DNA of 64,000 bases, from the IMG/VR virus record IMGVR_UViG_3300028887_000001, positions 220,088 through 284,087 of that record; one strand, written 5' to 3'. Of this stretch, positions 33,428 to 50,286 are shown in pieces. Within the stretch, counting starts at the first letter, position 1; every line of letters starts with the position of its first letter. Under the pieces are notes generated by a model that was not told where the DNA came from, ran no database searches, and was given only the letters and a program-made list of their open reading frames with translations. Both the position numbers and the translations under genes were made by a program. This stretch comes from a virus. Lineage: Duplodnaviria > Heunggongvirae > Uroviricota > Caudoviricetes.

Positions 33428-33508
33428 TATAAATAGTTGTTAAATTGAATATTAAACTAGTTTAATTTATATTTTAATGGAAAAAACAACTACTAACATA
33501 TATTTATA
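33428..33508. promoter_or_regulatory. Divergent pair of putative late promoters TATTTATA (33428-33435 minus; 33501-33508 plus)
   Basis: The same octamer lies on the sense strand upstream of both divergent genes. Confidence 0.6.
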
Positions 33509-35250: not shown

Positions 35251-35556
35251 ATGAAAAAGAGAATAACAGAATCAGATTTACACAAGATTGTTCATGAATC
35301 AATAAACATGGTATTAAATGAGGGACAATCTGACGGAAAACCAATTGAAAAGTGGAACTATTGGTGTGCAAATTACTACCCAGACTTTATCCAAAAGGCA
35401 TGGGCAGATAAACCAAACATGGCAAAACACCTGGAAGAAAAATTTGGAGCATTCTATGACTCTGTTGGGCCTTATGGTGTAATGCTAAAATTCTATCTTG
35501 CACTAGACAGCACAAACAAGAAGATTCTTGAGGATTATGTCATGAACAATTATTAA
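35251..35556 (+). CDS. Leader-tagged small protein (candidate capsid-internal protein)
   Basis: Begins MKKRITESDLHKIVHESINMVLNE. In-frame upstream ATGs at 35212 and 35230 are also possible starts. Confidence 0.72.
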   Translation: MKKRITESDLHKIVHESINMVLNEGQSDGKPIEKWNYWCANYYPDFIQKAWADKPNMAKHLEEKFGAFYDSVGPYGVMLKFYLALDSTNKKILEDYVMNNY

Positions 35557-35558
35557 TC

Positions 35559-35594
35559 AAAAAGGTGGCTCATTTGAACCACCTTTCTTTTTTT
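35559..35594. terminator. Bidirectional terminator between convergent genes
   Basis: AAAGGTGG...CCACCTTT stem flanked by A- and T-tracts. Confidence 0.75.
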
Positions 35595-37661
35595 TTATTC
35601 ACCTTCTTTATCGTCTATTATCTCATCAAGTGTGTCATTTAGCAAATCATCTAACTTATTAATAACACCATTCATTTCCTCGTTAATCATCAGATTCTTG
35701 TCATAAACATCTACTCTTGGTATCTGAGTATCTTCTTTTTTCTTTGTGTTCATGTTTTCAACAATCTGATTAAACAACTTGTTCGCACGAACCTCATGCT
35801 TTGTTAATGATTGTTCTGTTAATAACTTTCCATTTTTATTAACATTTTCCATTGGAGGGCCTTGTGGGGCTGCATTTGGTTCTGGGCCACCTCCTGGTAC
35901 CATATCGCCAACAGGTTCAATACCTTCTTCTCCACTTATTTCTCCAGTATCACCGCCTGGGCCTCCAAAGTCATCAAAGCCTCCTGTCATTCCGCCACCG
36001 CCACCACCTGACATTCCACCATCTGGGCCACCCATTTCACCCCCATTATCATCAACGTATTCTGCCCCTGGCTCACCATACATTCTATCAACAGTGTCGA
36101 AAATACCACTTCTCTTGATAATCTGTGATGTCTTCTCGTATTCTGCGCTTAATGCCTTTTCGAGACGGATTTCCTCAAGCATATCCTTGATTTCCTTATC
36201 ACTAAACTTAAGAATTCTCTTCCACGCTTCCTGTGCACTCAAAACTGGTATACCATTTCCTGGGTCACTTACAGCATCCCTCATTATTGCAATCTTCTTC
36301 TGCAAGTTTTCCAATTCAAGCTGTTCTGCTTGTGTGCTTGGGTTGTTCATGCTTAAGTTGAAGTTTGTAAGGTCTTCTTCAAAGCCAAGCAAATATAAGT
36401 GTATTGTGGCAATCTTTGTTAATTCCATTAAGAATGCCTGTTGGAATCTGTTAATCGTTCTTGCAAACCTAACATCCATTAGCGCAAGATTCTTTCCGTC
36501 TCCAGTCGCTTCTTCAAAGTTCAGGAATGATTGTGGAATTCTTAATGCAGCACAAACCTTCTTTTGTATATATTTTATGTCATCGATTGCCTCAAGATTT
36601 TTTGCACCGGCAAGTGTTTCTATTGGGTTTGTTGCGTTCATATCACGCACCGGGATGAAGAAATCATCCTGACTACACAAGATATTCTTCCTTAAATCCA
36701 ATTGTCCTGTCATTGGGTCAACAATCGGAGTTCTCTTAAATTGATTTGCGATTTCCTCAACATACGCTGGTATGTCTTCATCGTCTAAAGCACCAACATA
36801 TATTTTGTAAACACGCCTTTCCATCGACCTCTCCAGCCTATATATCAACATCATATCTTCCATTAGTGCAAGCATTCTGAAATGCCTTCTTGCGGCAGAT
36901 AACATTGATACACCATATGGCAAGAACATTGAATTATGAAGCAATCTGAAATGCGCAATCTGCCAATTTCTAAATGGAACCAACTCACCACCGGTCTCAC
37001 TTGTCCACATAAATTTAGTTGATGTGTCTTTTGACCCAGCACCATTCGTCATATTAACAGTTGATGCACCACCATATGGATTGACGATACCACACTCAAC
37101 CCTTTCAACCTCACCAACTGGCAATTGTCTCCAGCCCTTAACGCCAAGGTCTTTATCAATATCAAGAAGCATAAATTGGTTTCCATACTTACACATTGCA
37201 CGAATAACCATTTGCGCTGTTACCTGAAGATTTAACCTATTAACAAATAAATCCTCAAGAATACTCTTAATTCTATCAGATTTTGAACTAACATTAACAA
37301 TTTGGCCGCCATTATTCGGGTTTGGCTGAACACTCTCTTCTGAGCACAAATCAAGCGCAGCACCAATCTCTGGATAAGAATCCATCAAATCAGCATCCCT
37401 GTACATTAATTTAATGTTACTTAAATTTGCAAACGCACTCATTGATAAGTTCTGATTAGCCCTTATCCACCTGTTTGCCAAGTATTTGTTCTGCTGTAAT
37501 TCTAACTTCTTCTCCTGATATTTCTGCGGGTCTTCAGTTGTATATAAAACCTTATCCGGACTTTCCTCTGGTGTTAAATCAGCAATTCCGTTTGATGCAG
37601 ACCACGCCCCATTAAATACCTTTGACATGTTCTGGAACGTCGTATATAATCTATTTGCCAT
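35595..37661 (-). CDS. gp20: Portal protein (T4 gp20-like) with Gly/Pro-rich C-terminal extension
   Basis: PEIGAALD, EDMMLIYRLERSMERRVYKIYVG, DDFFIPVR and IETLAGA motifs. Confidence 0.92.
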   Translation of the reverse strand: MANRLYTTFQNMSKVFNGAWSASNGIADLTPEESPDKVLYTTEDPQKYQEKKLELQQNKYLANRWIRANQNLSMSAFANLSNIKLMYRDADLMDSYPEIGAALDLCSEESVQPNPNNGGQIVNVSSKSDRIKSILEDLFVNRLNLQVTAQMVIRAMCKYGNQFMLLDIDKDLGVKGWRQLPVGEVERVECGIVNPYGGASTVNMTNGAGSKDTSTKFMWTSETGGELVPFRNWQIAHFRLLHNSMFLPYGVSMLSAARRHFRMLALMEDMMLIYRLERSMERRVYKIYVGALDDEDIPAYVEEIANQFKRTPIVDPMTGQLDLRKNILCSQDDFFIPVRDMNATNPIETLAGAKNLEAIDDIKYIQKKVCAALRIPQSFLNFEEATGDGKNLALMDVRFARTINRFQQAFLMELTKIATIHLYLLGFEEDLTNFNLSMNNPSTQAEQLELENLQKKIAIMRDAVSDPGNGIPVLSAQEAWKRILKFSDKEIKDMLEEIRLEKALSAEYEKTSQIIKRSGIFDTVDRMYGEPGAEYVDDNGGEMGGPDGGMSGGGGGGMTGGFDDFGGPGGDTGEISGEEGIEPVGDMVPGGGPEPNAAPQGPPMENVNKNGKLLTEQSLTKHEVRANKLFNQIVENMNTKKKEDTQIPRVDVYDKNLMINEEMNGVINKLDDLLNDTLDEIIDDKEGE

Positions 37662-37763
37662 TTACTACTATACTATAATATAATATATAAATATCTGAAA
37701 CTACAATTCAAGCTAAAAAATTAATTCTTTGTGATATTTATTATTATAATAACATGTTTAAGT

Positions 37764-38309
37764 ATGAAGAGAATTAAATTAACAGAATCACAATTACACA
37801 CAATTATTAGAGAAGCTGTTTCTCGTGTAATAAATGAAGGCAAGGAAGACCATGGCGACTTTTACGATGGTGTTGCATGGGTTAAAAATAGCGATGGAAA
37901 ATATAATTACGTAAATAAACACAACCAACTTATATGCCAGGAATGGTTTGACGATGCCATGGATTTCAGAGATGGTGTTGGTGCTGTGAGAAGAAAGAAT
38001 AAGTGGAATTTCGTTAACAGCCTTGGAGAACTTATTTCCAGAATGTGGTTTGATGATGTGCACTATTCAAGCGAAGGCTATGCAGCAGTTAAGGTTAGTG
38101 ATAATTTTAATCCTGATAACATCCATAAGTGGAACTATATTAACCACGATGGTAAGTTCATATCAAAGAATTGGTTTGATTGGTGTGGGTGGTTTGAAAA
38201 TGGCTATGGAGAGGTTAGAATAGGTGATAAGTATGGCTATATCGACACAAAGGGAGAAACCCCTGTAACAAGGCGCAAAACACGTGAAACTGGCATTGAA
38301 AGAGTTTAA
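37764..38309 (+). CDS. Leader-tagged WG-repeat (KWG-like) protein
   Basis: Leader MKRIKLTESQLHTIIREAVSRVINE, then repeats FxDGVAxV...KWNFVN..G..I...WFD. ATG at 37764 preferred over the track's GTG. Confidence 0.8.
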   Translation: MKRIKLTESQLHTIIREAVSRVINEGKEDHGDFYDGVAWVKNSDGKYNYVNKHNQLICQEWFDDAMDFRDGVGAVRRKNKWNFVNSLGELISRMWFDDVHYSSEGYAAVKVSDNFNPDNIHKWNYINHDGKFISKNWFDWCGWFENGYGEVRIGDKYGYIDTKGETPVTRRKTRETGIERV

Positions 38310-38326
38310 TAAACGTTCTAAAATAA

Positions 38327-38356
38327 TAAAAGCCTTCCGATTGGGAGGCTTTCTTT
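38327..38356. terminator. Bidirectional terminator between the WG-repeat and terminase genes
   Basis: AAAGCCTTCC...GGGAGGCTTT stem. Confidence 0.75.
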
Positions 38357-40255
38357 CTATCTATACCCTGACATTAGCCAGACATACGGATTTTTAATGT
38401 TATTCTCTATTCTTGCTATCTTTTTATTTCTTTTCCATGAATTAGATGTGTAAAATGGACTTATGTGTGAAGATGGCGCTACAGTACTTTCTTCTGTCAT
38501 TTTTGATTTTGGGTAGCTATAATCACTTCCACTCCTTATAAATGCCTTTAATATTGCTGCGTCTCTTGATTTGTCAGCTTCAATCCTTTGAAATGAGAAC
38601 TTATATATAAACAATGCCAACGCACAACATGTTATATTATCATCATGACTTCCTGACTGGTGGTCCATCTTTCCATCTTCGTTCTTGAATATCCACGTAT
38701 CCAACTCATTACATAACCTTGCAGAATGAACTGTAAATGAGCCATCACTTACCATATTTGCAAAGTTCCTTAACAATGAGAACCTATTACCTTGAAAATG
38801 GAATCCAGGCATTCTTTCAGCATATTTTTCATTTGACTTCTCAACCTTCCTCATGTAGTCCTTCATCACCTTATCATCATAATAAAGGTTCTTATACCCC
38901 CAATAATTCATCAACCTCAATAAACAAGCATCACCAGTACCACCAGTTGCATCAACAACCACGTATGCATTATTATACAAACTTGCATATTTGTATATCA
39001 TATCACCCAATTTATCACCAAGAACCCTACCATTGTATTCCATTATTTGTTCTAAGTGTGGCATACCATATTGGTCTTTTCCATCAACATCAATGACTTG
39101 TATTGACGTTCTATCATCAGACGAGCCGACAGACGGGTCACAAGACAAAATGTACCTGTGTCCTTCAACTGGCATCCTCCAAAACCATGTGTCTTCTTCT
39201 GTTGGGTCTGCAAATTCTGCAAGTGGCTCACACACATCCTCTATTCTTATCTTCTCAATCGTTGCTGCTGGTATAACGTTGTCACTTGAACCAAGGAATG
39301 AGACATCAAGCTCCTGTGCAATTCTCATTGGGTCATTATTAAATGACTCACACATCTTTTTATACCACGGTGAAATTGGCTTCCAACCATCCTTTTCAAG
39401 CATTGCCCACTTCTCTATATTGAATTCAACCCTTCCAGCCTCGTCAATTGTCTTTTCTTCTATCCATTCAGTACCACCAGTCTTTTCGTTCTTCCTATAC
39501 CACTTCAGGAATCTATTATACCTTGGGTCTTGGAACCATTTGAATTCAACAATAACAAAACCATTCCTCTTTTCCAATGCCTGTTTATATGTTTGATAGA
39601 ACAATGGGTCGTGACCGTTTGGCGTTGAAATAAGAACAATCTTGGCGTTTGGTACAGCAGATGTTGCAGCAACGGCACTAGCATATGTATCCATTGAATT
39701 CTCAACGAAAGCAGCCTCGTCAATCACAAGTATACCAACACTAGAAATACCTCTGGCCGCATTAGCGGAACTCGCTCTGGCATAAAACCTACAACCATTG
39801 CACAACTCAATATAAGTCTTTGAATTCTTTACAAAAATGTCTTTTGTGTTCTTCTCTGATTTTGGGTCATCTGAATAAAATTCCTCTCCCCAATACCACC
39901 TTGGAACCTGTAATAAAAAGTCCCTTATCTTTGTTATAAGCTCACAAGCCTGTTCAAGTTTATTGGCAATAAGCAGAACATTAAACGGAGACTCAGGCTT
40001 CGCAAAAGTACATTCACCAACAATCCACCCACATGTACATGTGGATATACCACACTGACGATGTTTTGTTGGTATTATCTTATTATACTCAGCTAACATC
40101 TCACAATATGTCTTCTGCCTTGGAAATACAGCAAATGGAACATTCCTTCCCTCAGTACCATCAAACGTACTGAGATACTTTTCCATAAAATATGTCCTAC
40201 TCTTATCAGAATACGCTTTAATGTATTCTTGAGCCATTTCCTTCTTGTCTATCAT
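38357..40255 (-). CDS. gp17: Terminase large subunit (T4 gp17-like)
   Basis: KHRQCGIST Walker-A variant, LVIDEAAF Walker B, ISTPNG coupling motif, nuclease CDPSVG and HDD. Confidence 0.93.
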   Translation of the reverse strand: MIDKKEMAQEYIKAYSDKSRTYFMEKYLSTFDGTEGRNVPFAVFPRQKTYCEMLAEYNKIIPTKHRQCGISTCTCGWIVGECTFAKPESPFNVLLIANKLEQACELITKIRDFLLQVPRWYWGEEFYSDDPKSEKNTKDIFVKNSKTYIELCNGCRFYARASSANAARGISSVGILVIDEAAFVENSMDTYASAVAATSAVPNAKIVLISTPNGHDPLFYQTYKQALEKRNGFVIVEFKWFQDPRYNRFLKWYRKNEKTGGTEWIEEKTIDEAGRVEFNIEKWAMLEKDGWKPISPWYKKMCESFNNDPMRIAQELDVSFLGSSDNVIPAATIEKIRIEDVCEPLAEFADPTEEDTWFWRMPVEGHRYILSCDPSVGSSDDRTSIQVIDVDGKDQYGMPHLEQIMEYNGRVLGDKLGDMIYKYASLYNNAYVVVDATGGTGDACLLRLMNYWGYKNLYYDDKVMKDYMRKVEKSNEKYAERMPGFHFQGNRFSLLRNFANMVSDGSFTVHSARLCNELDTWIFKNEDGKMDHQSGSHDDNITCCALALFIYKFSFQRIEADKSRDAAILKAFIRSGSDYSYPKSKMTEESTVAPSSHISPFYTSNSWKRNKKIARIENNIKNPYVWLMSGYR

Positions 40256-40392
40256 TGAATTGCATCTAACTATATAGATAAATATACAACATTTTACTTT
40301 TTATTTAAGTCGTTGAATATTAAGTATTGTGATAAACATATTTAATCAAGCCACAACCCCACTTTAATTGCTTTCTGTATGTCCGAGAAGCA

Positions 40393-40548
40393 TCATTCTT
40401 TTGACCACCCCCTCTTCCTTAATACTACACCATTGTCTGAAAAGATTTTCTTCAATCCCTTCTTTCCAACCCTGTATTTTAACACCACATTCTCAAGATT
40501 CATTCCTGAGGTGTAATCCAATATCATATCTTTAATGTCACCCACCAT
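40393..40548 (-). CDS. Small HTH-like protein (51 aa) overlapping the endonuclease stop
   Basis: Below the ORF-track cutoff. MVGDIKDMILDYTSGMNLENVVLKYRVGKKGLKKIFSDNGVVLRKRGWSKE*; its ATG overlaps the end of the upstream gene. Confidence 0.5.
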   Translation of the reverse strand: MVGDIKDMILDYTSGMNLENVVLKYRVGKKGLKKIFSDNGVVLRKRGWSKE

Positions 40549-41896
40549 AAACTAAGTCTTTTGTCCAACCATGTCTCGAAGCAGAACTGTACGCCGCCGG
40601 ATATTTACTATACATATCCCTGGCACCACTACATTTCTTTGCAATTGCAATAACCCTCTCTTTGTTGTTCCAATATCCACGTGGCTTATTTAGTGCCACA
40701 ATAAACTCATCCAACCAACCATTCCTTTGTGCTGCTTTATAAGCGGGTTGATTTCCTTTCTCAAAATCAGTCCTTGTGGCATATTTACTTGCTTCTTCTT
40801 TGCATAATTCATATGTCCAATGTATTCTCTTATTTACCATTTTTTTACGCCTTAAAGCATTATCCTTTGGTATATATTCAAAATTATCCAACGTACTTAT
40901 GTAGTCAAGCAAATCGTTTATTTTTGTGAAAACATTTTTATCCGCATACCAACCTCCAAAAACATCAACTCCCTTTTCATAAAAAGTACTTGGGTCGGTA
41001 TAATAAATCATTATATTTTTATCTTTTGTTACTGTATTATATTTCTGCTTGTCTAATTCCATTCTATTTTTTAATTCCATTTCAGCATCTTCATCTGAAA
41101 TTTTCAAGCCAAACTTTGTTGGAACATAGTGCTGCTCACCTTGGCACTCTATGTATAAATGTTTTTGTGGTAAATAAAAATCGATACTCTGTCTTCCAAG
41201 ACCATTGTAATAATTCCACGTTTCATAATAAATTTGATTTGCATCAAAACTAACACACAATCTTTCCTCTAAAACCGAATTTTTACATAATGGGCAACCA
41301 TTACCACTTAAATGTTGATATGGTGTTTGCTTAAAATCACCATGCTTATAACACGTTATGTATGACTTTGTTTTTGCATTTACATAATAGAAATTATTAT
41401 ACCCATACCTATTACCATGTTTTTTTCTTGCTGCAACAACAAATTCTTCTTTTGTCATTTTCTTTGAGCCGCCACAAATTGGGCACCCAGACCCAAGCAA
41501 ATGTGCCTTAAACCTTTGATAAAAAGGACCATGCTCAACACCGTCTTCATTTTTAACATGACAAATAAATAAACCAGTATCCGATGGTTTTCCACTATAT
41601 TCACCCATTTGTGAATAATCATATCTACCTTCTCCGTGTTTCTGTTCAGCAATGGCAATCCATTCTTCTGTTGTTGGTTTATAATATCCAGAACATTTCG
41701 GACACCTAACACCATTTCTTAGATGGTCTGTTCTAATATAAAAATCACCATGCTCATTGCCAAAAACATCTTTCTCGTGACACGTTACTAATATTTTTGT
41801 TCTACAATTAATATATTCTGTTTTTTCAAAACTATAGTTCTTTCCTATACAAGAATTTTTTATCAACTCCAATGCTTCATATTGACTCCGTTTCAT
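40538..41896 (-). CDS. Free-standing putative homing endonuclease (PD-(D/E)xK / Vsr-like) with Zn-finger repeats
   Basis: Three C..HGxF....HL.G..CPxC repeats, IDFYLP...IECQGEQH nuclease motif, two C-terminal WTYE/YW...AY..A..NGW repeats. Inserted between MCP and terminase. Confidence 0.75.
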   Translation of the reverse strand: MKRSQYEALELIKNSCIGKNYSFEKTEYINCRTKILVTCHEKDVFGNEHGDFYIRTDHLRNGVRCPKCSGYYKPTTEEWIAIAEQKHGEGRYDYSQMGEYSGKPSDTGLFICHVKNEDGVEHGPFYQRFKAHLLGSGCPICGGSKKMTKEEFVVAARKKHGNRYGYNNFYYVNAKTKSYITCYKHGDFKQTPYQHLSGNGCPLCKNSVLEERLCVSFDANQIYYETWNYYNGLGRQSIDFYLPQKHLYIECQGEQHYVPTKFGLKISDEDAEMELKNRMELDKQKYNTVTKDKNIMIYYTDPSTFYEKGVDVFGGWYADKNVFTKINDLLDYISTLDNFEYIPKDNALRRKKMVNKRIHWTYELCKEEASKYATRTDFEKGNQPAYKAAQRNGWLDEFIVALNKPRGYWNNKERVIAIAKKCSGARDMYSKYPAAYSSASRHGWTKDLVYGG

Positions 41897-41920
41897 TTTT
41901 AAAAATAATCATTACCCAAA

Positions 41921-41969
41921 TATAAATATTTGCTACATACAATTTTTTATTAATTTTTTTGCAAAGATA
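41921..41969 (-). promoter_or_regulatory. Tandem late-type (TATTTATA, 41921-41928) and host-type (TAnnTTTG, 41962-41969) promoters of the endonuclease gene
   Basis: Both motifs are exact matches between the MCP terminator and the ATG. Confidence 0.6.
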
Positions 41970-41983
41970 CTAAAATTGTTTTT

Positions 41984-42018
41984 AAAAAAAAAATACCCCT
42001 CCAAATGAAGGGGTATTT
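41984..42018 (-). terminator. Terminator after the major capsid gene
   Basis: AAATACCCCT...AGGGGTATTT stem plus a long U-tract. Confidence 0.8.
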
Positions 42019-42047
42019 AAAGTATTGTTTTAAGTAATGATAGATAA

Positions 42048-44000
42048 CTATCTCAATTCCATGGTACTAAATGTTGTTAGTCCATCAACGCGAACTTGTC
42101 CAAAGAATTTGTTGCAGACTACCTTCTTAGCATAACGTGTTGCGATACCCTTTACAGGTGCCATGTTGAATACGTTATACATGGTTGGAGTCAACTGCAT
42201 TGGAACGTATGGAGCGTATACATAACCAGTGTCAAGGAGGCTCTTACCCTTATGACCAATCAAGAGTGACCAGTGAGGAGAGTATGGGTCTACATAAACT
42301 TGATAACGGCTAGATACTGCACCAATCTTCTCAATACCCATGTTATACTGATTTTGCTCAGCATTTGCATCGGTTACGTGGAAGTATTCGAGGTCATCGA
42401 AGAGAGCAGAAATCTCAGAAGAACATACAATCCAGTTGGCACCGCCACGGAGAGTAGCCTTATTGATTTGAGCGCTAATCTGATTTACACGAGTGATAAG
42501 GAATTGGTTCCAATCCTTTTGAGTGTAGTTTGTGCTGGTAGCAGCCTGACGCTTCCAACCATTCCAGTCGAATCTCAACTGCCAAGGAGCAGCCTTACGG
42601 AGGTCACGAAGAATCTCACGGTCAACCTCAGCGGCGATTTGCTCAGAGAGGATAGAAGTCAACTCAGCTTCTGCGTCGATGTTGTGGAATGCACTAACGT
42701 CGGTAGAGAGCTCTGGAGACCAGGTAGCACGAAGCTTACGTTCGGTAACACTTACGGTTACGCTATCGAGCTTGAAGCTAACCTCACCAATCTCAGTTTC
42801 GAGTTCGAGGCTGTCGTATTGAGCCCATGCAATCTTGAATGCGGTTGGGTCAAATGCGTTTGCGTCAACACCAACATAACCATCGATAGTACCACCCTGC
42901 TCAGCACAAGTCTTAGCGAGGTCGAGTTCGATATAGATGTTGCCTTCTGCATCGCAAGGAGCACCAGTGTACTCAACGATACCCTTACCATACTTTTGAG
43001 TTACAACACGGAAAGGAACGCTTTCGTATTGGTCAAAAGCTGCGGTGGTGATACCAGAGTTAGCGCCAGCAGTTCCAGCGGAAATAGCAGCAGTTGTGAT
43101 AACCTTAAGAGAAGCGAGGAACTCTTCAGTATCCATTTCGTTTCCATCAGGACCAGTCAACTTAGATGCATTGAATGCAGAGAAACCGTTAACCTTGAGG
43201 ATTATGTTACGAACGGTGCCGTCATAACCGCAAAGCTTAGGAGTAGCAGCTTCTTTGAAGCCGAAAGGAGTTAAATCAACTGCCTCTGCGTTGCCAACAT
43301 GAAGAGTAACCTTACCCTTTGAGTTGTCATAGAGGAAGTCATCATAGAAGAGGTCATAGAGACTCTTTTGGAAGTACTGAGTAACCTCAGGACCAGCCTG
43401 ACGAATTGCGGTGCCATTGAAGCCAGCTTCAGTAGCAGCACTCAAAGCTTCAGTGTAAGCGCTATAAGTCTGACCACTGAATACCCAAGAATTCTCAAGC
43501 TCGTTGATTACCTCATCAGGGAGATAGTAGCGAGGTTCTTGACGACCATCCTTGTTGCGGTTGGTGCGGTCATAACCCATAAGACCCTTGTGGCGACCTA
43601 CGGTACCATCAAAGATGTCACCAGACTCAATGTCAGAACCCTCTGGAGCAATCCATTCACGCTCACTGGTTACGGGGAGGATGAAGAAGAGCTTACCAAC
43701 TGGAAGGTTCATAGCCTGTACCGATACGATGTCGTTAGCAAGGAGTTTGCTAAATACACGACGAACAATCGGGAATACTACGGTTTCGAAAGAACCGCTA
43801 TTGTTGGCATCAGTAGCCTCCTTGAGGAGATACTTTGCCTCGTTCTCATACAGAGTGGCAATGTTTTCCTTGATTGTACCTTCAGGAAGACCTTCGGTAA
43901 AACCGAGAGAGTCCCAACGACTCTGAACTTGCTCACGAATCTGTTTTTGGGTGTTGTACTCAATATTTCCAACTAAACCCGAAGTAAGAAATTCTCTCAT
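42048..44000 (-). CDS. gp23: Major capsid protein (T4 gp23-like), enlarged to 650 aa
   Basis: LLANDIVSVQAM, RKLRATWSPEL, DAEAELTSILSEQIAAEVDREIL and YVYAPYVP...TRYA motifs; strong codon bias. Confidence 0.95.
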   Translation of the reverse strand: MREFLTSGLVGNIEYNTQKQIREQVQSRWDSLGFTEGLPEGTIKENIATLYENEAKYLLKEATDANNSGSFETVVFPIVRRVFSKLLANDIVSVQAMNLPVGKLFFILPVTSEREWIAPEGSDIESGDIFDGTVGRHKGLMGYDRTNRNKDGRQEPRYYLPDEVINELENSWVFSGQTYSAYTEALSAATEAGFNGTAIRQAGPEVTQYFQKSLYDLFYDDFLYDNSKGKVTLHVGNAEAVDLTPFGFKEAATPKLCGYDGTVRNIILKVNGFSAFNASKLTGPDGNEMDTEEFLASLKVITTAAISAGTAGANSGITTAAFDQYESVPFRVVTQKYGKGIVEYTGAPCDAEGNIYIELDLAKTCAEQGGTIDGYVGVDANAFDPTAFKIAWAQYDSLELETEIGEVSFKLDSVTVSVTERKLRATWSPELSTDVSAFHNIDAEAELTSILSEQIAAEVDREILRDLRKAAPWQLRFDWNGWKRQAATSTNYTQKDWNQFLITRVNQISAQINKATLRGGANWIVCSSEISALFDDLEYFHVTDANAEQNQYNMGIEKIGAVSSRYQVYVDPYSPHWSLLIGHKGKSLLDTGYVYAPYVPMQLTPTMYNVFNMAPVKGIATRYAKKVVCNKFFGQVRVDGLTTFSTMELR

Positions 44001-44035
44001 TGTCTATTAAAAATAAATTAATTAGTCTTTTAAAT

Positions 44036-44043
44036 TATAAATA
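44036..44043 (-). promoter_or_regulatory. Putative late promoter GATATTTATA upstream of the MCP gene
   Basis: Exact octamer. The same motif recurs at 37686, 45523, 45692(+), 47548(+), 50262 and 55514. Confidence 0.65.
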
Positions 44044-44048
44044 TCAAA

Positions 44049-45476
44049 TTACTTGCAAATTTTATGCATAAGTCCAAGTGAACTCATAAGACCTTCGTCC
44101 TGATAGAACTTGCTTTCGTTGATTACTTCCGCATTGGAAGTTCCGAACTCTTTTTCCTCATTAATGTTTGTTACATTCTGTGGATTTTTCTTAAGTTCGT
44201 TTGAAATTGTGTTGTAGAGACTCTTTGACTCTTCAATTGTGTGTACCTCGTTTGTGAAGCGGTTGATAATGTCACGCTTTTCTTCCTTGGTTGTTGAGTT
44301 CTCAGAGATAAGCTTGATTATACCACCGAGGTTAACATTTGTAACTGCTGCCTCTTTGAGCATGTCAGTAATCTTGTTAAGCTCTTCCTTGAGTTTCTTG
44401 TTTTCCTCGAAAATCCTGTCAGCTTTCTTAACAATTGACTCATTGGTTGCATTTGGGTTTCCTTGATATTCGCCAGCGAAAGTTGTGTTGTGTTTTGGTG
44501 GGTTATTATTGCAACTTGTGTTTTGAACATGAGATTTTGCTCTTCCTCTGTTGGTTCCACCCTTTTCAACAACAGTTTCTTCCATTTCTGGCAAATCATC
44601 TTCCTTAAGTCCACATTCACTTGTTTGTGCCTTTTTATTAAATGGGGCACCGTCTTTCTTGTTTGACCAAGGCTTTGCGGTTGTGTGAGGAACGCCATCG
44701 TCAATGTCTCTACCATTTCCAGGTTCCTGTACGCCGTCTGATGTCATGACATCCTTATCCTGATAGTTGTCTGTATAGCCAACGTTGGAGTCATATTCAT
44801 TCAGTGCGATTTCATAAATTCTTGATTCTTTCATATCGTCTGTAAAATTTTCGTCCGTTATTTCAGAAGTGTTGTCATTACCAGACAAGTCGATAATATA
44901 CTCGGCTCCTGTTTCTTTGTCTGAAATGCTAACCTTATCATCGTCTTTTACAACAGTAACTTGGTCATCATTATTCAGGCGTTTATAAATCTTTACGATT
45001 TCATCGTCTTTCGCATTACGGAAGTCATACTCATTGTCTGATACCTTGTATTTCTCGAAGTCCAAGTCATCTTCAAAATCGCCTTCTGGAGTTTCCTCAC
45101 CATCTACTTCGATTTCCTCTACGTCATCTTCAGTGGCTTCTTGGTCATCCTCTGGTTCCGTACCTTCTGCATCAGCATCATCATCAACCTCATCAGTTTC
45201 TTCTGTTGCTTCAGCATCTTCAACTTGTTCGTCGTCTGTGGCATCATCATTTGTATCATCCACTTCCTCTACATCATATTCCTTTTCCTCTACATCATCA
45301 TCTTCTGACTCGTTGAGGATTGAGGCATATGCTTCTTTTACCTGTTCGCTAAGTAAAGCCTTAACGCTGTCGGTAACGTTTTCCTCTAACTTTTGTGCAA
45401 GATTGTTGTAATCCATCAATGACTCCTTAATGAGAGCTCCATTGAGTTTCTTGCTGTTTTTATTATCTGTGCTCAT
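44049..45476 (-). CDS. Prohead core scaffold protein (T4 gp22-like)
   Basis: Very acidic with coiled-coil stretches and many [ILV]-x-E sites; directly upstream of MCP. Confidence 0.75.
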   Translation of the reverse strand: MSTDNKNSKKLNGALIKESLMDYNNLAQKLEENVTDSVKALLSEQVKEAYASILNESEDDDVEEKEYDVEEVDDTNDDATDDEQVEDAEATEETDEVDDDADAEGTEPEDDQEATEDDVEEIEVDGEETPEGDFEDDLDFEKYKVSDNEYDFRNAKDDEIVKIYKRLNNDDQVTVVKDDDKVSISDKETGAEYIIDLSGNDNTSEITDENFTDDMKESRIYEIALNEYDSNVGYTDNYQDKDVMTSDGVQEPGNGRDIDDGVPHTTAKPWSNKKDGAPFNKKAQTSECGLKEDDLPEMEETVVEKGGTNRGRAKSHVQNTSCNNNPPKHNTTFAGEYQGNPNATNESIVKKADRIFEENKKLKEELNKITDMLKEAAVTNVNLGGIIKLISENSTTKEEKRDIINRFTNEVHTIEESKSLYNTISNELKKNPQNVTNINEEKEFGTSNAEVINESKFYQDEGLMSSLGLMHKICK

Positions 45477-45721
45477 ATCTAAATGAAATATTAAAAGCTT
45501 TTAAAATTAATGTCAATTTAAATATAAATATCTGTAATTTTGAAATTATACATTTATTTATCGCAATTTAAGGCAATAGACGTCAATCATCACCCCAAAC
45601 TTTGATAATAATAAATATTATAAAAATAAAAAAAATAGTAAACAATTGTAATTTTATTTTAATTTATTGTTATTTCAACTAAATTTCTTTATATTTATAT
45701 ATAGTTTTAACTTAATATTTG

Positions 45722-47545
45722 ATGGAAACAAATAATAATAAACAGGAAAGGCTTGTTGAAATTAAAGCTGGAAAAACAGGATACGGAATCCTTATAGAAT
45801 CTGACGGATATGTTTCTCGTGATTTAACGGAAAATAACAAAAAAATAATAAAAGAAGCATTGGAATCAAGAGAAAATGGGGAATGGTATGTCCCTAATCC
45901 ATTTGTCCTTGATGTTGTACTACAAAAATATGGTATTGAAAACGCAAATAAAAGAATATATCCTGAGGGTATACTAAAAAGAGAAGTTGAAAAATACCAA
46001 AAACTAATTCAACAAAGAATGGCATTGGGCGAATGTTATAAGCCAGATGTTTTGGTTTTAACTGAAAATGGTTGGAAAACACTCGAATCAGTAAAAGAAG
46101 GTGATAATGTATTAACATTAAATGTTGAAACAAATCAAATAGAAATACAACCAATAAAAAGAAAAATAGAATATGATTTCGATGGAAACTTGATAAACAT
46201 TAAAGGAAGGCATATAGATGATGAAGTCACTCCGCATCACGGCTTCCCATTATATGATAGGAACCATAAATTTAAATTTTTCAAAACAGCAAATGAATTA
46301 ATGAATGAGGATAATTTATCCCATTATTATATACCAAAAAATGGTGAATGGGTTGAAAAAGGTAATGATTTTTTCATACTAAAAGGAATCGTCAACCCAA
46401 GCCCAAATACAATTAAATACCATCCATATTGCAAAATGGACGTATCAATACCAATGAGCACTTTTATGAAATTTATGGGTATTTATCTTTCTGAAGGTTG
46501 TTTTAATAAAAAGAGCTATAGCGTTAATATTTATCAAAAAAAAGAAAATGTTTGCGATTTAATAGAAGAACTTTGTGAAGAACTTGGCTTTAAATATTCT
46601 GTTAAAACCAGGAAAGGTGGCTGTAAAGTATTTAAAATTTGTGACCCAAGATTACATAATTATGTTAAACAATTTGGTGATTGCTACACAAAATATATAC
46701 CAAAGGAACTTAAATCACAATCAAAAGAAAATTTAAGGTTATTATATGATTGGTTTGTTCTTGGCGATGGAAGGATAAGAGGTGACAAAAGGAGATTGAA
46801 ACCACATACTCTAACTGATGATATTTTCTCTTCATCAAAACAATTGGCTTTAGACCTTAATGAAATACAATTAAAAATTGGGTATAGTGGTGATTATCAC
46901 GTAGAGTTAAGAGATAATGATAGGATTATAGAGGGAAGGTTAATAGAAGGGAAAAATGCTAACCCATTACACTTCTCATTAAGGTCTTTGAGTAAAGGTG
47001 TTTATATTGATAAACGATTTATTAATATTGAAGAAATTCCATATAAAGGTAAAGTGATGTGTATTGAAGTAGACAATCATACATGGTATGTGATGTCAAA
47101 TGGAAAATGTCATTGGACCAAAAACTGCAACCACCCTGAAAAATCTGAGATTGACCTTGGTAGAATTTCACACAATATAATTGAATGTCATTGGGAGGGA
47201 CATACTCTTGTCGGGAAGATAGAATTCAACCTCACAGAAGGATTCAGAAAATATGGTATTTGTTCATCTCTTGGAGATACGGTTGTTAACCTTATTATGA
47301 ATGGATACAAAATAGGCGTTTCTTCAAGAGGTATAGGTAGTGTTAAATCCCAACTTGGTAAAACAGTTGTTTGTGACGACTTTGAAATAATATGCTGGGA
47401 TGTTGTTGCAACACCATCTACTCCGGGTAGTTATATTGGAAGCCGTGAAGAGTTGGAACAATATGTCGAAAGTGATACAACCAGAAATGATAAACCACAA
47501 TTAACAGAAAAAATAAACAAGATTAAGGAAATTCTTAACTCTTGA
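45722..47545 (+). CDS. gp21: Prohead maturation protease (T4 gp21-like) interrupted by an intein
   Basis: NANKRIYP, ALGE|intein|CNHP, GVSSRGIGS and WDVVATPSTPGS motifs. ATG at 45722. Confidence 0.92.
   Translation: METNNNKQERLVEIKAGKTGYGILIESDGYVSRDLTENNKKIIKEALESRENGEWYVPNPFVLDVVLQKYGIENANKRIYPEGILKREVEKYQKLIQQRMALGECYKPDVLVLTENGWKTLESVKEGDNVLTLNVETNQIEIQPIKRKIEYDFDGNLINIKGRHIDDEVTPHHGFPLYDRNHKFKFFKTANELMNEDNLSHYYIPKNGEWVEKGNDFFILKGIVNPSPNTIKYHPYCKMDVSIPMSTFMKFMGIYLSEGCFNKKSYSVNIYQKKENVCDLIEELCEELGFKYSVKTRKGGCKVFKICDPRLHNYVKQFGDCYTKYIPKELKSQSKENLRLLYDWFVLGDGRIRGDKRRLKPHTLTDDIFSSSKQLALDLNEIQLKIGYSGDYHVELRDNDRIIEGRLIEGKNANPLHFSLRSLSKGVYIDKRFINIEEIPYKGKVMCIEVDNHTWYVMSNGKCHWTKNCNHPEKSEIDLGRISHNIIECHWEGHTLVGKIEFNLTEGFRKYGICSSLGDTVVNLIMNGYKIGVSSRGIGSVKSQLGKTVVCDDFEIICWDVVATPSTPGSYIGSREELEQYVESDTTRNDKPQLTEKINKIKEILNS
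46034..47125 (+). mobile_element. Intein (364 aa) with LAGLIDADG homing endonuclease
   Basis: Begins CYKPDVLVLTENGWK, contains FMGIYLSEG and WFVLGDG helices, ends HWTKN, followed by Cys+1. Confidence 0.92.
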
Positions 47546-47577
47546 CATATTTATAATGTAAAAAATTATATATAAAC

Positions 47578-48117
47578 ATGAAAAAGGTAATTAGATTGAC
47601 AGAATCAGACTTACATAGAATTGTAAATGAGTCTGTACAGAGAATTCTTACTGAAGAAATGGATGAAGGTTTGTTTGGTGGACTCGGTGCCCTTGGACAA
47701 ATGTTCGGCAATAAGGCAAGAAAGGCTGGCCAGGGAATGACAAACGCAGCAAGTCAGAAAATTGGCCAAGCAAAAGATGCTATGGGAAGGGTTGCAAATG
47801 CTGTTGGTAATAAGGTAAATCAAGCCGGGCGATACGTTGGTAACGCTTATAATAATGCAAAGGAAACTGTTGGCAATGCTTATAATGATGCAAAGCAAGC
47901 CTATCAGACCGGCTCTGCAAGCTCAGATGCACAAAGTGCAATCCAAGACGCTGTAAAGGCTTTGCAAAACCTTAAGGCGGCAGACCAAAAGCTTCAGAGT
48001 ATGGGACAATATAGTGTAATTGGCAAACAGGGTGTGTTGATTGACCAACTCTTAAAAGTTCTTGGTTCTACTAGTGGTAGATTCAAAGCAAGAACAAGTG
48101 CTTTCGCAAACGCTTAA
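47578..48117 (+). CDS. Leader-tagged protein with amphipathic 11-mer repeats (candidate capsid-internal/ejection protein)
   Basis: Leader MKKVIRLTESDLHRIVNESVQRILTE; VGNAYNNAKET/VGNAYNDAKQA repeats; TATTTATA at 47548. Confidence 0.78.
   Translation: MKKVIRLTESDLHRIVNESVQRILTEEMDEGLFGGLGALGQMFGNKARKAGQGMTNAASQKIGQAKDAMGRVANAVGNKVNQAGRYVGNAYNNAKETVGNAYNDAKQAYQTGSASSDAQSAIQDAVKALQNLKAADQKLQSMGQYSVIGKQGVLIDQLLKVLGSTSGRFKARTSAFANA
47836..47895 (+). repeat. 33-bp-period tandem duplication encoding VGNAYNxAK
   Basis: GTTGGTAACGCTTATAATAATGCAAAG at 47836 and GTTGGCAATGCTTATAATGATGCAAAG at 47869. Confidence 0.8.
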
Positions 48118-48542
48118 TTAAACAATTTTTCCCAGAAAGATTTAGGTGCATTCTTGGTTTTATTAAACAGGGATGCATCTTTTGTTTTTGTTATATTAAG
48201 GCCATATTTATTCTTCATTTCATTTGCAATTTTAATGAATTCATTCCCATGGTCTCCGTTGTCTTTTATTTTATTCCACGCAATATAATAATGAATCATT
48301 TCGTGAACCATTATTTCAATAAAATCATTTTCATCATAATCATAACAATCGGAAAATAATATTATCTTATGTTCAAGTGGTTTTTTATCTTTGTCTTTTT
48401 TGCTACTTTTCCTGTATTCAAACCTTGCAATGAACTTGGTATTATTAATCAAACCAAATTTTGGTGTTGGTAGTTCTCCGTTGAAATATTTCTCATTGCA
48501 ATCATAGAACACCATTGGCATTGTATTAAAATCAGCAACCAT
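48114..48542 (-). CDS. SprT-like zinc metalloprotease
   Basis: NEKYFNGELP, HEMIH and DHGNEF motifs. ATG at 48542 lies downstream of a TAnnTTTG promoter at 48573-48580. Confidence 0.85.
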   Translation of the reverse strand: MVADFNTMPMVFYDCNEKYFNGELPTPKFGLINNTKFIARFEYRKSSKKDKDKKPLEHKIILFSDCYDYDENDFIEIMVHEMIHYYIAWNKIKDNGDHGNEFIKIANEMKNKYGLNITKTKDASLFNKTKNAPKSFWEKLFN

Positions 48543-48633
48543 ATTATTATGTTTTAAAATTAATTCTAGATGCAAAATTATAACATTTATTTTAATCAAA
48601 CAAGAAAAAGCATAAAAATTTTTACTACACAAT

Positions 48634-48664
48634 AAAAAGGCACCTCAAACTGGGGTGCCTTCTT
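48634..48664 (-). terminator. Terminator after the phosphoesterase gene
   Basis: AAGGCACC...GGTGCCTT stem. Confidence 0.7.
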
Positions 48665-48682
48665 AAAAAGAATGTTCTAAAA

Positions 48683-49846
48683 TCAATCACAGTATATTTG
48701 TCTTGTCAATATCTGGTCGTGGAACTCAGTATCGTAAACAATGTACTGCTGTTGTGGTCTTTCGTATTCAAAGCCATTTGTGAGTGCAAATGAATTATAT
48801 GAGATAATAGAACCATTAACAACCGCATTTGGTGTATTCACACTTGAGTGGAAGTGACCAATAAACAACATGTCCTGTTTAAACACCTTTGAATATTTCA
48901 GACAAAGCCTGTTAAGCGCAGGATATATACCACAAATGGTTCCACTTCCACCAGACTTGATTTGGAATCCATGCGCAAAAATGAACTTCTTTCCATCTAC
49001 GGTCTCTGCAATCGCAAGTTCACCTTCTGGTATGTAGAATTCAATTGGCAATTTATTGATTTCGCAATAATCCTTGATATTTTGGTACATCAGCCACTCA
49101 TAACTCATCTTAAATCCGTTATTGTGTTGAATCTTCTTGCTTGTTCTGCTATGATTTCCAACAATACCAATAAACCTGATTTTCTTAAGTTTTGACAATT
49201 GCTGGTTTTCGCAGAGATATTTAAGACCGCTATAAATTAAAGATTGTGCCTTATATATTGCTTCTAATGGACTTAGTCCGTTCGTTTGTTCCAATTCTTG
49301 GTGAATATACCCTGAAATTGTGTCACCAAGACTGGCAAAAATAAGCTCATCCACATCATCCTGTGCAAGACACGCCGCAAGGTTTCTGAAATATGTTTCT
49401 ATTCTTTGCTCAGCAATTTCTATATTATATTCATTAAGAAAGTTAACCGATTCTGGAGTGACGGTTTCCTCGATGTGTGCGTCACTGAATAATGCGACTG
49501 CATATCTATACCCCCTTTTATTTGAAAAAGGCTTAAACTTATAAATCTGGAATGGCTGTTGCTGTGCCTCCTTTGCTTTAAGGAATTCCTGGTATTCTTC
49601 TTCATCTTCTCTTGGTTGAATTATCACTTGCGGAAGCTCCTGTTGTGTTTCTTCTGTTTTCTTCTTGTTCGGCTCGTACATAATGTACACAACACCATTG
49701 TGCTTAAAATAACCATTAGTGTTAATAGCTCTACTAACCCTTTCTCTTTTCACGTGAATTGCTTTTGATAGCTTGCATATGCTATCATACACATTACCAT
49801 CACTGTCAACCAACCTTGTTGGTATTCCCATTTTTACATTTTGCAT
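48683..49846 (-). CDS. Calcineurin-like metallophosphoesterase with an N-terminal NUMOD1-like DNA-binding segment
   Basis: SDAH, LGD, GNH, HG and GHFH metal motifs. N-terminal DGNVYDSICKLSKAIHV pattern. TAnnTTTG promoter at 49880-49887. Confidence 0.85.
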   Translation of the reverse strand: MQNVKMGIPTRLVDSDGNVYDSICKLSKAIHVKRERVSRAINTNGYFKHNGVVYIMYEPNKKKTEETQQELPQVIIQPREDEEEYQEFLKAKEAQQQPFQIYKFKPFSNKRGYRYAVALFSDAHIEETVTPESVNFLNEYNIEIAEQRIETYFRNLAACLAQDDVDELIFASLGDTISGYIHQELEQTNGLSPLEAIYKAQSLIYSGLKYLCENQQLSKLKKIRFIGIVGNHSRTSKKIQHNNGFKMSYEWLMYQNIKDYCEINKLPIEFYIPEGELAIAETVDGKKFIFAHGFQIKSGGSGTICGIYPALNRLCLKYSKVFKQDMLFIGHFHSSVNTPNAVVNGSIISYNSFALTNGFEYERPQQQYIVYDTEFHDQILTRQIYCD

Positions 49847-49978
49847 ACTTTTAAAACCTTTATTGAATTAATTTCGGTGCAAAAATACTAAAAATGTTTG
49901 ACATAGACAATATTTTACATAAGAAAAATAAAAAAAGCACCCAAAACGGATGCTTATCTATATCATTCCCCCCCAAAA

Positions 49979-50239
49979 TTACCAACCACGACTTCTTCTT
50001 ATTTCGTCATCTCGCAACTTTGCTTTTCTATTTGCTTCAAGATATTTTTCGTCGTGCATGTCATCTAATGGGCTTGAACCAAATGGACCACCCTGATTAC
50101 CAGTCCTCTCTGTGTGACCTTTGTTAAATCCATATCCATTTTCGCTTGAACCGCCAATAAATTCTTTTAAAATTTTATTTACAGACTCTTTCACAACCCT
50201 GTGAAGGTCACTTTCTGTTAATCTAATTACTTGTTTCAT
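49979..50239 (-). CDS. Leader-tagged small protein (86 aa; candidate capsid-internal protein)
   Basis: Leader MKQVIRLTESDLHRVVKESVNKILKE; GATATTTATA upstream; terminator-like hairpin at 49930-49955. Confidence 0.78.
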   Translation of the reverse strand: MKQVIRLTESDLHRVVKESVNKILKEFIGGSSENGYGFNKGHTERTGNQGGPFGSSPLDDMHDEKYLEANRKAKLRDDEIRRSRGW

Positions 50240-50286
50240 ATGATTTAATCTTTATTTTATATATAAATATCTTTAATTTAAAAAAC

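Follow-up and report, generated by a model that had tools for sequence, protein, structure and literature searches.

Here we describe a portable leader peptide of about 25 residues, with the consensus MKKxIRLTESDLHRIVKESVNKILNE, that heads unrelated small proteins in an uncultured jumbo phage of the rumen and in its relatives. The leader was characterized in a 64,000-nt stretch of DNA (the window; positions 220,088 to 284,087 of IMG/VR record IMGVR_UViG_3300028887_000001), which is part of a complete 348,671-bp genome with direct terminal repeats and a G+C content of 35%. Four genes in the window carry the leader and surround a head module of the T4 type, and further copies are spread over the rest of the genome. 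From the sequence, conservation and setting of these copies we infer that leader proteins dock on the prohead, are cleaved and become encapsidated. We regard it as an evenly balanced proposition that the leader is a protease-removable address label for the prohead core, like the capsid-targeting sequence (CTS) of phage T4 but in a longer, three-site form.

The four proteins encoded by the window genes have nothing in common past the leader. The first (101 aa; 35251..35556, plus strand) has its leader at 35251-35322 (MKKRITESDLHKIVHESINMVLNE), followed by a small orphan domain; its start is ambiguous between 35212, 35230 and 35251, and the last of these was picked by analogy with the other leader genes. 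In the second (181 aa; 37764..38309, plus strand) the leader, at 37764-37838, ends in INE and precedes a WG-repeat beta domain (PF14903, E 7e-16), the only Pfam match among the four. The leader of the third (179 aa; 47578..48117, plus strand) spans 47578-47655, ends in LTE and is followed by EEMDE-GLFGGLGALG and then by an all-helical, basic payload with an isoelectric point (pI) of 10.1. The fourth (86 aa; 49979..50239, minus strand) has its leader at 50162-50239, ending in LKE, and continues as a 60-aa Gly-rich tail; an initial annotation of this DNA had called that payload acidic, but it is charge-neutral (net charge 0, pI 6.7). When a hidden Markov model (HMM) made from the four leaders was run against 5,506 six-frame segments of the whole genome, the four scored E 1e-15 to 1e-16, and chance is therefore excluded as the source of the resemblance. 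The observation from which the initial annotation set out is confirmed: the four open reading frames (ORFs) are found at the coordinates given, begin with the leaders exactly as quoted and then diverge. As a separate observation, the region at 47656-47720 and three unrelated leader proteins from the database search described below (P0028, P0039 and P0093) have G[LF]FG either immediately past the terminal Glu or, as in the 47578 protein, separated from it by a short acidic spacer; speculatively, cleavage after the terminal Glu would expose a Gly-rich, hydrophobic N-terminus resembling a fusion peptide.

The leader set is considerably larger than the four genes that the initial annotation had counted. 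That annotation had also suggested a profile scan of the genome and of related phages, and such scans found the leader widely on unrelated payloads. With an iterated profile, the whole genome yields 18 copies in 16 ORFs at E <= 1e-3, together with 6-8 weaker N-terminal variants; two of the proteins have a second copy near the C-terminus. Outside the window, the copies lie at genome positions 44.7-56.5 kb (seven genes), 151-154.6 kb (three genes), 211.7 kb and 294 kb. Complete genomes of relatives hold 8, 12 and 13 copies, and the leader-bearing contigs derive from rumen and gut metagenomes. Searched with the profile, 1.84 billion cluster representatives yielded 8,886 proteins at E <= 1e-3, of which 1,159 reach E <= 1e-10, and none of the matches is a named protein. 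The top of that match list is biased towards proteins with 2-4 leaders (P0001-P0150, for example P0013, P0015 and P0016), in which the internal leaders often retain M-N-K-K and often have x-E-S-[KR] about 8-10 residues upstream; these multi-copy proteins look like modules or whole cassettes fused in frame, in the manner of a polyprotein. The loci of relatives form the unbiased set: they encode 165 unique leader proteins with a median length of 128 aa, 156 of which have a single copy, and the 174 copies divide into 157 at the N-terminus, 12 in internal positions and 5 at the C-terminus.

The cultured Flavobacterium phage immuto, with 37% identity in the major capsid protein (MCP), has zero leader copies by profile search, and tblastn of a 34-aa leader against 50,697 GenBank phage records gave no match with a query that is too short for diverged copies. 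A homology search with the leader region, restricted to longer proteins, gave one match. When co-occurrence with the S77 protease and gp23 was checked, the other leader-bearing IMG/VR contigs proved to be mostly fragments, 33-48% complete; one record that is 95% complete has only fragmentary MCP matches and no protease match, possibly as its genes are split.

The leader has a recurring anatomy. AlphaFold2 models, run on single sequences, predict a single helix (residues 8-24 or 9-26) that breaks at the terminal [LIV]-x-E, before a payload that folds separately; the model of the 37764 protein, for example, has a helix at 8-24, a low-confidence break at 26-29 and strands thereafter. The leader contains three hydrophobic-x-Glu motifs, namely L-T-E, [IV]-K-E and L-x-E. 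Across 240 instances, Glu occupies the three positions in 98%, 75-83% and 84-86% of cases and Asp in 0%. All strong copies have [LIVF]-x-E as their last motif, and the hydrophobic-x-E ending noted initially on the window genes is thus general. By our own helical-wheel reasoning, the three Glu residues do not lie on one helical face. Because Glu is never replaced by Asp, and because the three residues sit on different faces, recognition by a Glu-specific protease of the S77 family would fit the pattern better than a generic amphipathic helix does. A signal peptide or lipoprotein signal was also considered and is ruled out, as the leader is hydrophilic and helical.

The leader is conserved as a peptide and not as DNA. 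The 18 leaders of the genome have a mean identity of 44% in amino acids and 53% in nucleotides, and use different codons at 58% of identical residues; these synonymous differences rule out conservation at the DNA level. Consistent with this, the leader plan is kept in the huge phage LR756508.1, whose MCP is only 41% identical and whose codon usage differs, in six diverged copies such as MRLTERRLKKIVKEEIDKVLQE. These data bear on the idea that the 5′ module, comprising a promoter and the first 25 codons, is kept mainly as a boundary for recombination or expression of cassettes and encodes a nearly functionless peptide. Such an account would draw on the many monocistronic cassettes that have their own promoters, on the movement of whole cassettes into host chromosomes beside IS1595 transposases (see below) and on six cassette pairs in which promoter-plus-leader DNA at least 90% identical over at least 100 nt precedes unrelated payloads. 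We nevertheless consider it very unlikely. The codon differences within one genome, the survival of the peptide plan in so distant a phage and the existence of internal and C-terminal copies, which have no promoter role, together indicate that the conserved peptide gave rise to recombination at the leader and not the reverse. The six pairs do identify the leader as the junction at which payloads are exchanged, an arrangement that matches the internal-protein loci of T-even phages, in which only the CTS is conserved (PMC3012670).

The window encodes a T4-type head module, identified by Pfam and structure matches. It comprises a portal of the T4 gp20 family (35595..37661, minus strand; PF07230), the large terminase subunit TerL (38357..40255, minus), a 650-aa MCP of the gp23 family (42048..44000, minus; PF07068), a 475-aa acidic scaffold-like protein encoded between the protease and MCP genes (44049..45476, minus) and a prohead protease of the T4 gp21 family, Peptidase_S77 (45722..47545, plus; PF03420, E 3e-16), which also matches the T4 gp21 structure (PDB 5jbl). 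This protease is the presumed enzyme that removes the leader. Its gene is split by a 364-aa LAGLIDADG intein (46034-47125; ALGE|C...N|CNHPE) adjoining the catalytic-His motif. The splice junctions look intact in the sequence; an intein-free orthologue reads ALGELNHP, and the intein is missing from the orthologues in two relatives, L036 (a 236-aa product encoded at L036:7522-8232) and L008.

The head proteins themselves carry motifs of the same kind as the end of the leader. The MCP reads ...YLLKE|ATDANNSG..., in which residues 58-61 and the following Ala form a putative maturation site, LLKE|A (encoded at 43818-43829), with its Glu at residue 61, as the initial annotation had correctly located it. 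The pattern [LIM]-x-E|A near residue 61 is kept in 55 relatives with 59-93% MCP identity, in which x is K, Y, S, N or T, and the conserved N-arm, which aligns with mature T4 gp23, follows shortly after it. The T4 gp23 precursor loses 65 residues (521 versus 456 in PDB chain lengths), a parallel to a site at about 61. Likewise, the N-terminal helix of the scaffold-like protein ends in ILNE before an acidic run, and [LI]-x-E precedes the acidic run in all relatives.

Leader genes also keep company with these head genes. They cluster in relatives beside the genes for the protease, scaffold and MCP: of 59 loci that span 15 kb or more around a related MCP gene, 40 have one or more leader genes no farther than 10 kb away. 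Four leader genes stand consecutively beside the protease in one relative (L036), and three lie within 2.5 kb of the protease in a 412-kb phage (G005). In the window, the 47578 gene and its promoter element are directly downstream of the protease gene.

That promoter element, ATATTTAT, connects leader and head genes in a second way. It occurs 96 times in the genome, and 54 of these copies precede a gene start on their own strand by at most 70 nt, most often by 25-35 nt. The genes that it heads include those for the MCP, scaffold, portal, TerL and protease, and it is on account of these genes that we regard it as a candidate late promoter element of the phage clade. It heads 10 of the 16 leader genes as against 44 of 430 others (Fisher P 1.4e-6); the other leader genes follow a ATATTTAT-headed gene in an operon. 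As the initial annotation had described, three of the window leader genes have the element upstream, at a distance of 30-31 nt (37734-37741 for the 37764 gene, 47547-47554 for the 47578 gene and 50263-50270 on the minus strand for the 50239 gene), and the 35251 gene, which is downstream of a GP88-like gene, belongs to a same-strand cassette headed by the element at 33500-33507. TerL is headed by a copy at 40278-40285 (minus), and further examples upstream of gene starts in the window are found at 37687, 41922, 44037 and 45524 on the minus strand and at 45691. Many small genes are monocistronic cassettes, each with its own ATATTTAT.

Taken together, these features suggest the following course of events. 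Leader genes would share a late-type promoter with the head genes, and the amphipathic helix of the leader would dock each protein on the assembling prohead core, through either the scaffold or the protease. After assembly of the shell, the gp21-family protease would cut behind the Glu of the terminal [LIV]-x-E, and probably behind the internal L-T-E and [IV]-K-E as well, dicing the label into peptides of about 8-10 residues that could leave the head while the payload stays inside. The idea of an exchangeable label clipped by the prohead protease, which the initial annotation had put forward, has several independent but indirect lines of support, namely a T4-type head with an S77 protease, the [LIV]-x-E ending with Glu positions that are never Asp, the conserved motif at the MCP site, the late-type promoter shared with head genes, synteny, unrelated payloads and near-identical promoter-plus-leader DNA before such payloads; the strictly N-terminal placement that it had implied does not hold.

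Proteins destined for a prohead that contains an [LI]-x-E protease should avoid exposed [LI]-x-E in their payloads. In the leader proteins of relatives, the family-weighted ratio of observed to expected [LI]-x-E in payloads is 0.82 (95% confidence interval 0.70-0.94; unweighted first values were 0.71-0.78), whereas the comparison motifs are not depleted (E-x-[LI], 1.26; [LI]-x-D, [LI]-x-Q and [LI]-x-K, 1.15-1.32) and [LI]-x-E in control proteins stands at 1.11 for this genome and 1.35 for neighbouring ORFs. This depletion gives modest support to a location in the prohead.

What the label would carry is diverse and mostly without relatives. The 161 leader proteins sorted by payload in the loci of relatives fall into 107 payload families. 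Pfam, NCBIfam and PHROG recognize known families among them in very few cases: WG repeats, a weak match to ComF-like phosphoribosyltransferases, one HNH and a single marginal VTC match. The payloads are short and hydrophilic, with a pI like that of the proteome (median 5.4, 30% basic). The initial annotation had envisaged varied effectors injected with the DNA; payload annotation gives that no backing, since the payloads are nearly all small orphan proteins, and their profile does not support an identifiable effector arsenal. Delivery of the payloads into the host together with the DNA is possible, but on the doubtful side; the payloads may instead simply fill the head or leave it.

The three Glu-ending motifs within each leader, and the polyprotein-like proteins in which internal copies are often preceded by x-E-S-[KR], could be read differently, as marks of a degradation or timing tag by which the S77 protease or a host protease destroys or activates tagged proteins outside the capsid, as a late-stage switch. 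We think this very improbable indeed: proteases of the S77 family act inside proheads after assembly (PMC5694885, PMC7411985), protease activity in the cytoplasm has no independent support, and the head is where the synteny of leader genes with those for scaffold and MCP points.

Copies of the leader also occur in bacterial chromosomes. A degenerate DNA pattern was used for finding the peptide in genomes; exact matches to LTESDLHRIVKES are encoded by 48 IMG/VR stretches and by 19 stretches of prokaryote genomes, the latter nearly all from metagenome-assembled genomes of rumen Prevotellaceae or Bacteroidales. Two of the 19 stretches come from isolates, Segatella bryantii DSM 11371 (on a 3.5-Mb contig) and Prevotella sp. 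MA2016. Among 301 sampled genomes of that family, 15 hold 1-5 leader copies. Single cassettes of promoter, leader and payload lie at L176:9932-10192 (S. bryantii DSM 11371), L158:5798-6823 (Prevotella sp. MA2016), L177:9498-10112 and L178:10342-10773, in chromosomes that lack an S77 protease. Their surroundings are plainly bacterial, with GH2-like and SusC/D-like genes and a G+C content of 41-51%. IS1595-type transposases adjoin three of the host copies, and the 412-kb relative G005 also carries one. The host copies keep GTGATATTTAT 25-40 nt upstream and match phage cassettes at 80-99% DNA identity, which identifies them as cassettes transferred from phages and not as a family of host genes; they do not refute a role of the leader in the capsid. 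They show active gene flow between virulent-looking phages and hosts, and the leader phages probably infect Prevotella. As a long shot, host cassettes might be decoys that stay silent until late transcription by the phage and are then loaded into proheads through the phage's own label, sabotaging its progeny as a capsid-poisoning defence; conversely, they might be a reservoir of new phage cargo. As a side observation, leader genes of the bacterial cassettes (L177:10229-11005, L178:9945-10313 and, at the C-terminus, L176:9251-9622) and of the phage (genome positions 42463 and 319927) are accompanied by a shorter motif, (N)INTIIKETINKF.., similar to the leader's second half.

A number of observations weigh against a CTS-like label. 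Although the proximity to head genes seen initially is correct for the four genes of the window, 12 of the 16 leader genes of the genome lie far from the head module. About 10% of leader copies are internal or C-terminal, positions from which the T4 CTS is not known. Five genomes in the Prevotella/Segatella group have a single leader gene in the chromosome and no S77 protease. The proteome-like pI of the payloads is unlike that of the basic T4 internal proteins, the 16 payloads of this genome show no [LI]-x-E depletion of their own (ratio 1.19), and L.E does not rank with the most depleted of the 298 residue pairs compared. Apart from the hydrophobic-x-E end, no sequence similarity between the leader and the T4 CTS (MKTYQEFIAE) can be detected, and between leader and scaffold N-terminal helix the profile-profile resemblance, confined to the second half of the leader, is weak (hhalign P 0.004, probability 8.8%). 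Finally, the clade is uncultured, and packaging and cleavage are predicted from sequence throughout.

Some of these points would suit a different function, in which the leader is a position-independent docking or oligomerization helix that recruits small late proteins, with no cleavage, to another hub such as the tail, the baseplate, a replication or assembly factory or a conserved host protein. Internal and C-terminal copies, proteins with 2-4 copies, the location of most leader genes outside the head module, single copies in host chromosomes that have no protease, and hydrophilic orphan payloads with no virion signature would all be expected of such a helix. We judge it unlikely, because it leaves unexplained the strict use of Glu, and never Asp, at three positions on differing helical faces, the invariable ending of the helix in the motif of the MCP maturation site, and the clustering of leader genes by the protease, scaffold and MCP genes in relatives; the host copies, with their phage promoter and 80-99% DNA identity to those of phages, look like transferred cassettes and not like a host ligand that the phage has mimicked.

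Should the leader prove to be a CTS-like label, one clade of uncultured jumbo phages of the rumen and gut would fill its capsids by means of a single portable tag on thousands of protein families, and the internal-protein paradigm of T4 would grow from four proteins to 8-18 per genome. With three protease sites packed into a single helix, the tag would be built to self-destruct. Its carriers would form a large set of candidates for delivery by the virion, and anti-defence factors, of which T4 IPI* is an example, would be expected among them. For the engineering of Bacteroidota phages, the leader would be an encapsidation tag ready for use.

Some further features of the genome touch on the promoter element and the leader less directly. 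Between the terminase and MCP genes lies a 452-aa ORF (40538-41896, minus strand) with its own ATATTTAT, which encodes repeated zinc-ribbon-like CxxC modules with a weak CapR-homology match and is possibly a mobile insert. Other N-termini recur behind ATATTTAT in the genome: MLD[NKQ][CY]YDSYGY... at 67811, 117465, 155080 and 189756; MNxLNSYGY... at 49498, 55383 and 197170; and M.IIINESQL... at 43364, 121500, 176509 and 191401. The IIINESQL-type N-terminus has the look of a shortened, degenerate leader.

The leader is not covered by any Pfam, NCBIfam or PHROG model, and literature searches for its motif strings and for CTS in papers on metagenomic and jumbo phages did not find a description of it; as far as these searches show, it has not been described or catalogued before. 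Given this and its dissimilarity to the T4 CTS, the leader would be at most an analogue or a very distant variant of that sequence. T4 gp21 cuts at [LI]-x-E. The CTS of T4 binds to the prohead core, and gp21 cuts it off (PMC7411985, PMC5694885, PMC3012670); it is carried by the internal proteins IPI, IPII, IPIII and Alt (Mullaney and Black 1996, according to the accounts in PMC5694885, PMC7411985 and PMC3012670). The likeness to the leader is broad: both are N-terminal peptides on unrelated, hypervariable small proteins, late in T4 and presumably late here, and end in hydrophobic-x-Glu. Both belong to phages that have a gp21-family protease, a gp20 portal and an MCP of the gp23 family whose maturation sites are alike, and payloads are exchanged in both at a junction formed by the conserved 5′ end. 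The leader differs in being 2.5 times longer (25 residues versus about 10), in having three hydrophobic-x-E motifs instead of one, in tagging 8-18 genes per genome as against four in T4, and in standing internally or at the C-terminus in about 10% of copies.

The small core proteins of T4, gp22, gp67 and gp68, offer a second comparison. They are cut at several [LI]-x-E sites and mostly expelled. Like many leader proteins they are small and encoded beside the protease, scaffold and MCP genes, they share with the leader the possession of several [LI]-x-E sites, and the scaffold-like protein described here has an N-terminal helix ending in [LI]-x-E before its acidic run. The core proteins, however, are conserved and essential or semi-essential, whereas leader proteins are hypervariable in payload and number.

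The propeptides on ejection and inner-body proteins of phiKZ-like giant phages (phiKZ, 201phi2-1 and SPN3US), which are cut by gp175/gp245 (PMC5694885, PMC7411985), resemble the leader in its proposed role in that many head proteins undergo Glu-specific processing by an S77-type enzyme, that several cleavage motifs yield small fragments that can leave the head, and that paralogues such as SPN3US gp53/gp54 have conserved N-termini. The phiKZ and SPN3US enzymes cut at [SAG]-x-E (PMC5694885), with a small P3 residue (S/A/G) where that of the leader is hydrophobic; their propeptides comprise at least 100 residues and form no single shared portable module, and the head described here is T4-type, not phiKZ-type. 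By analogy only, the leader may also be likened to the cargo-loading peptides of encapsulins, short portable peptides at either terminus that send diverse cargo inside a shell of the HK97 fold; those peptides attach directly to the shell protein, are not cut off by a protease and are unrelated to the leader in sequence. On these comparisons, the CTS-type principle is one already known from T4, and the longer, three-site form of the leader appears to be new.

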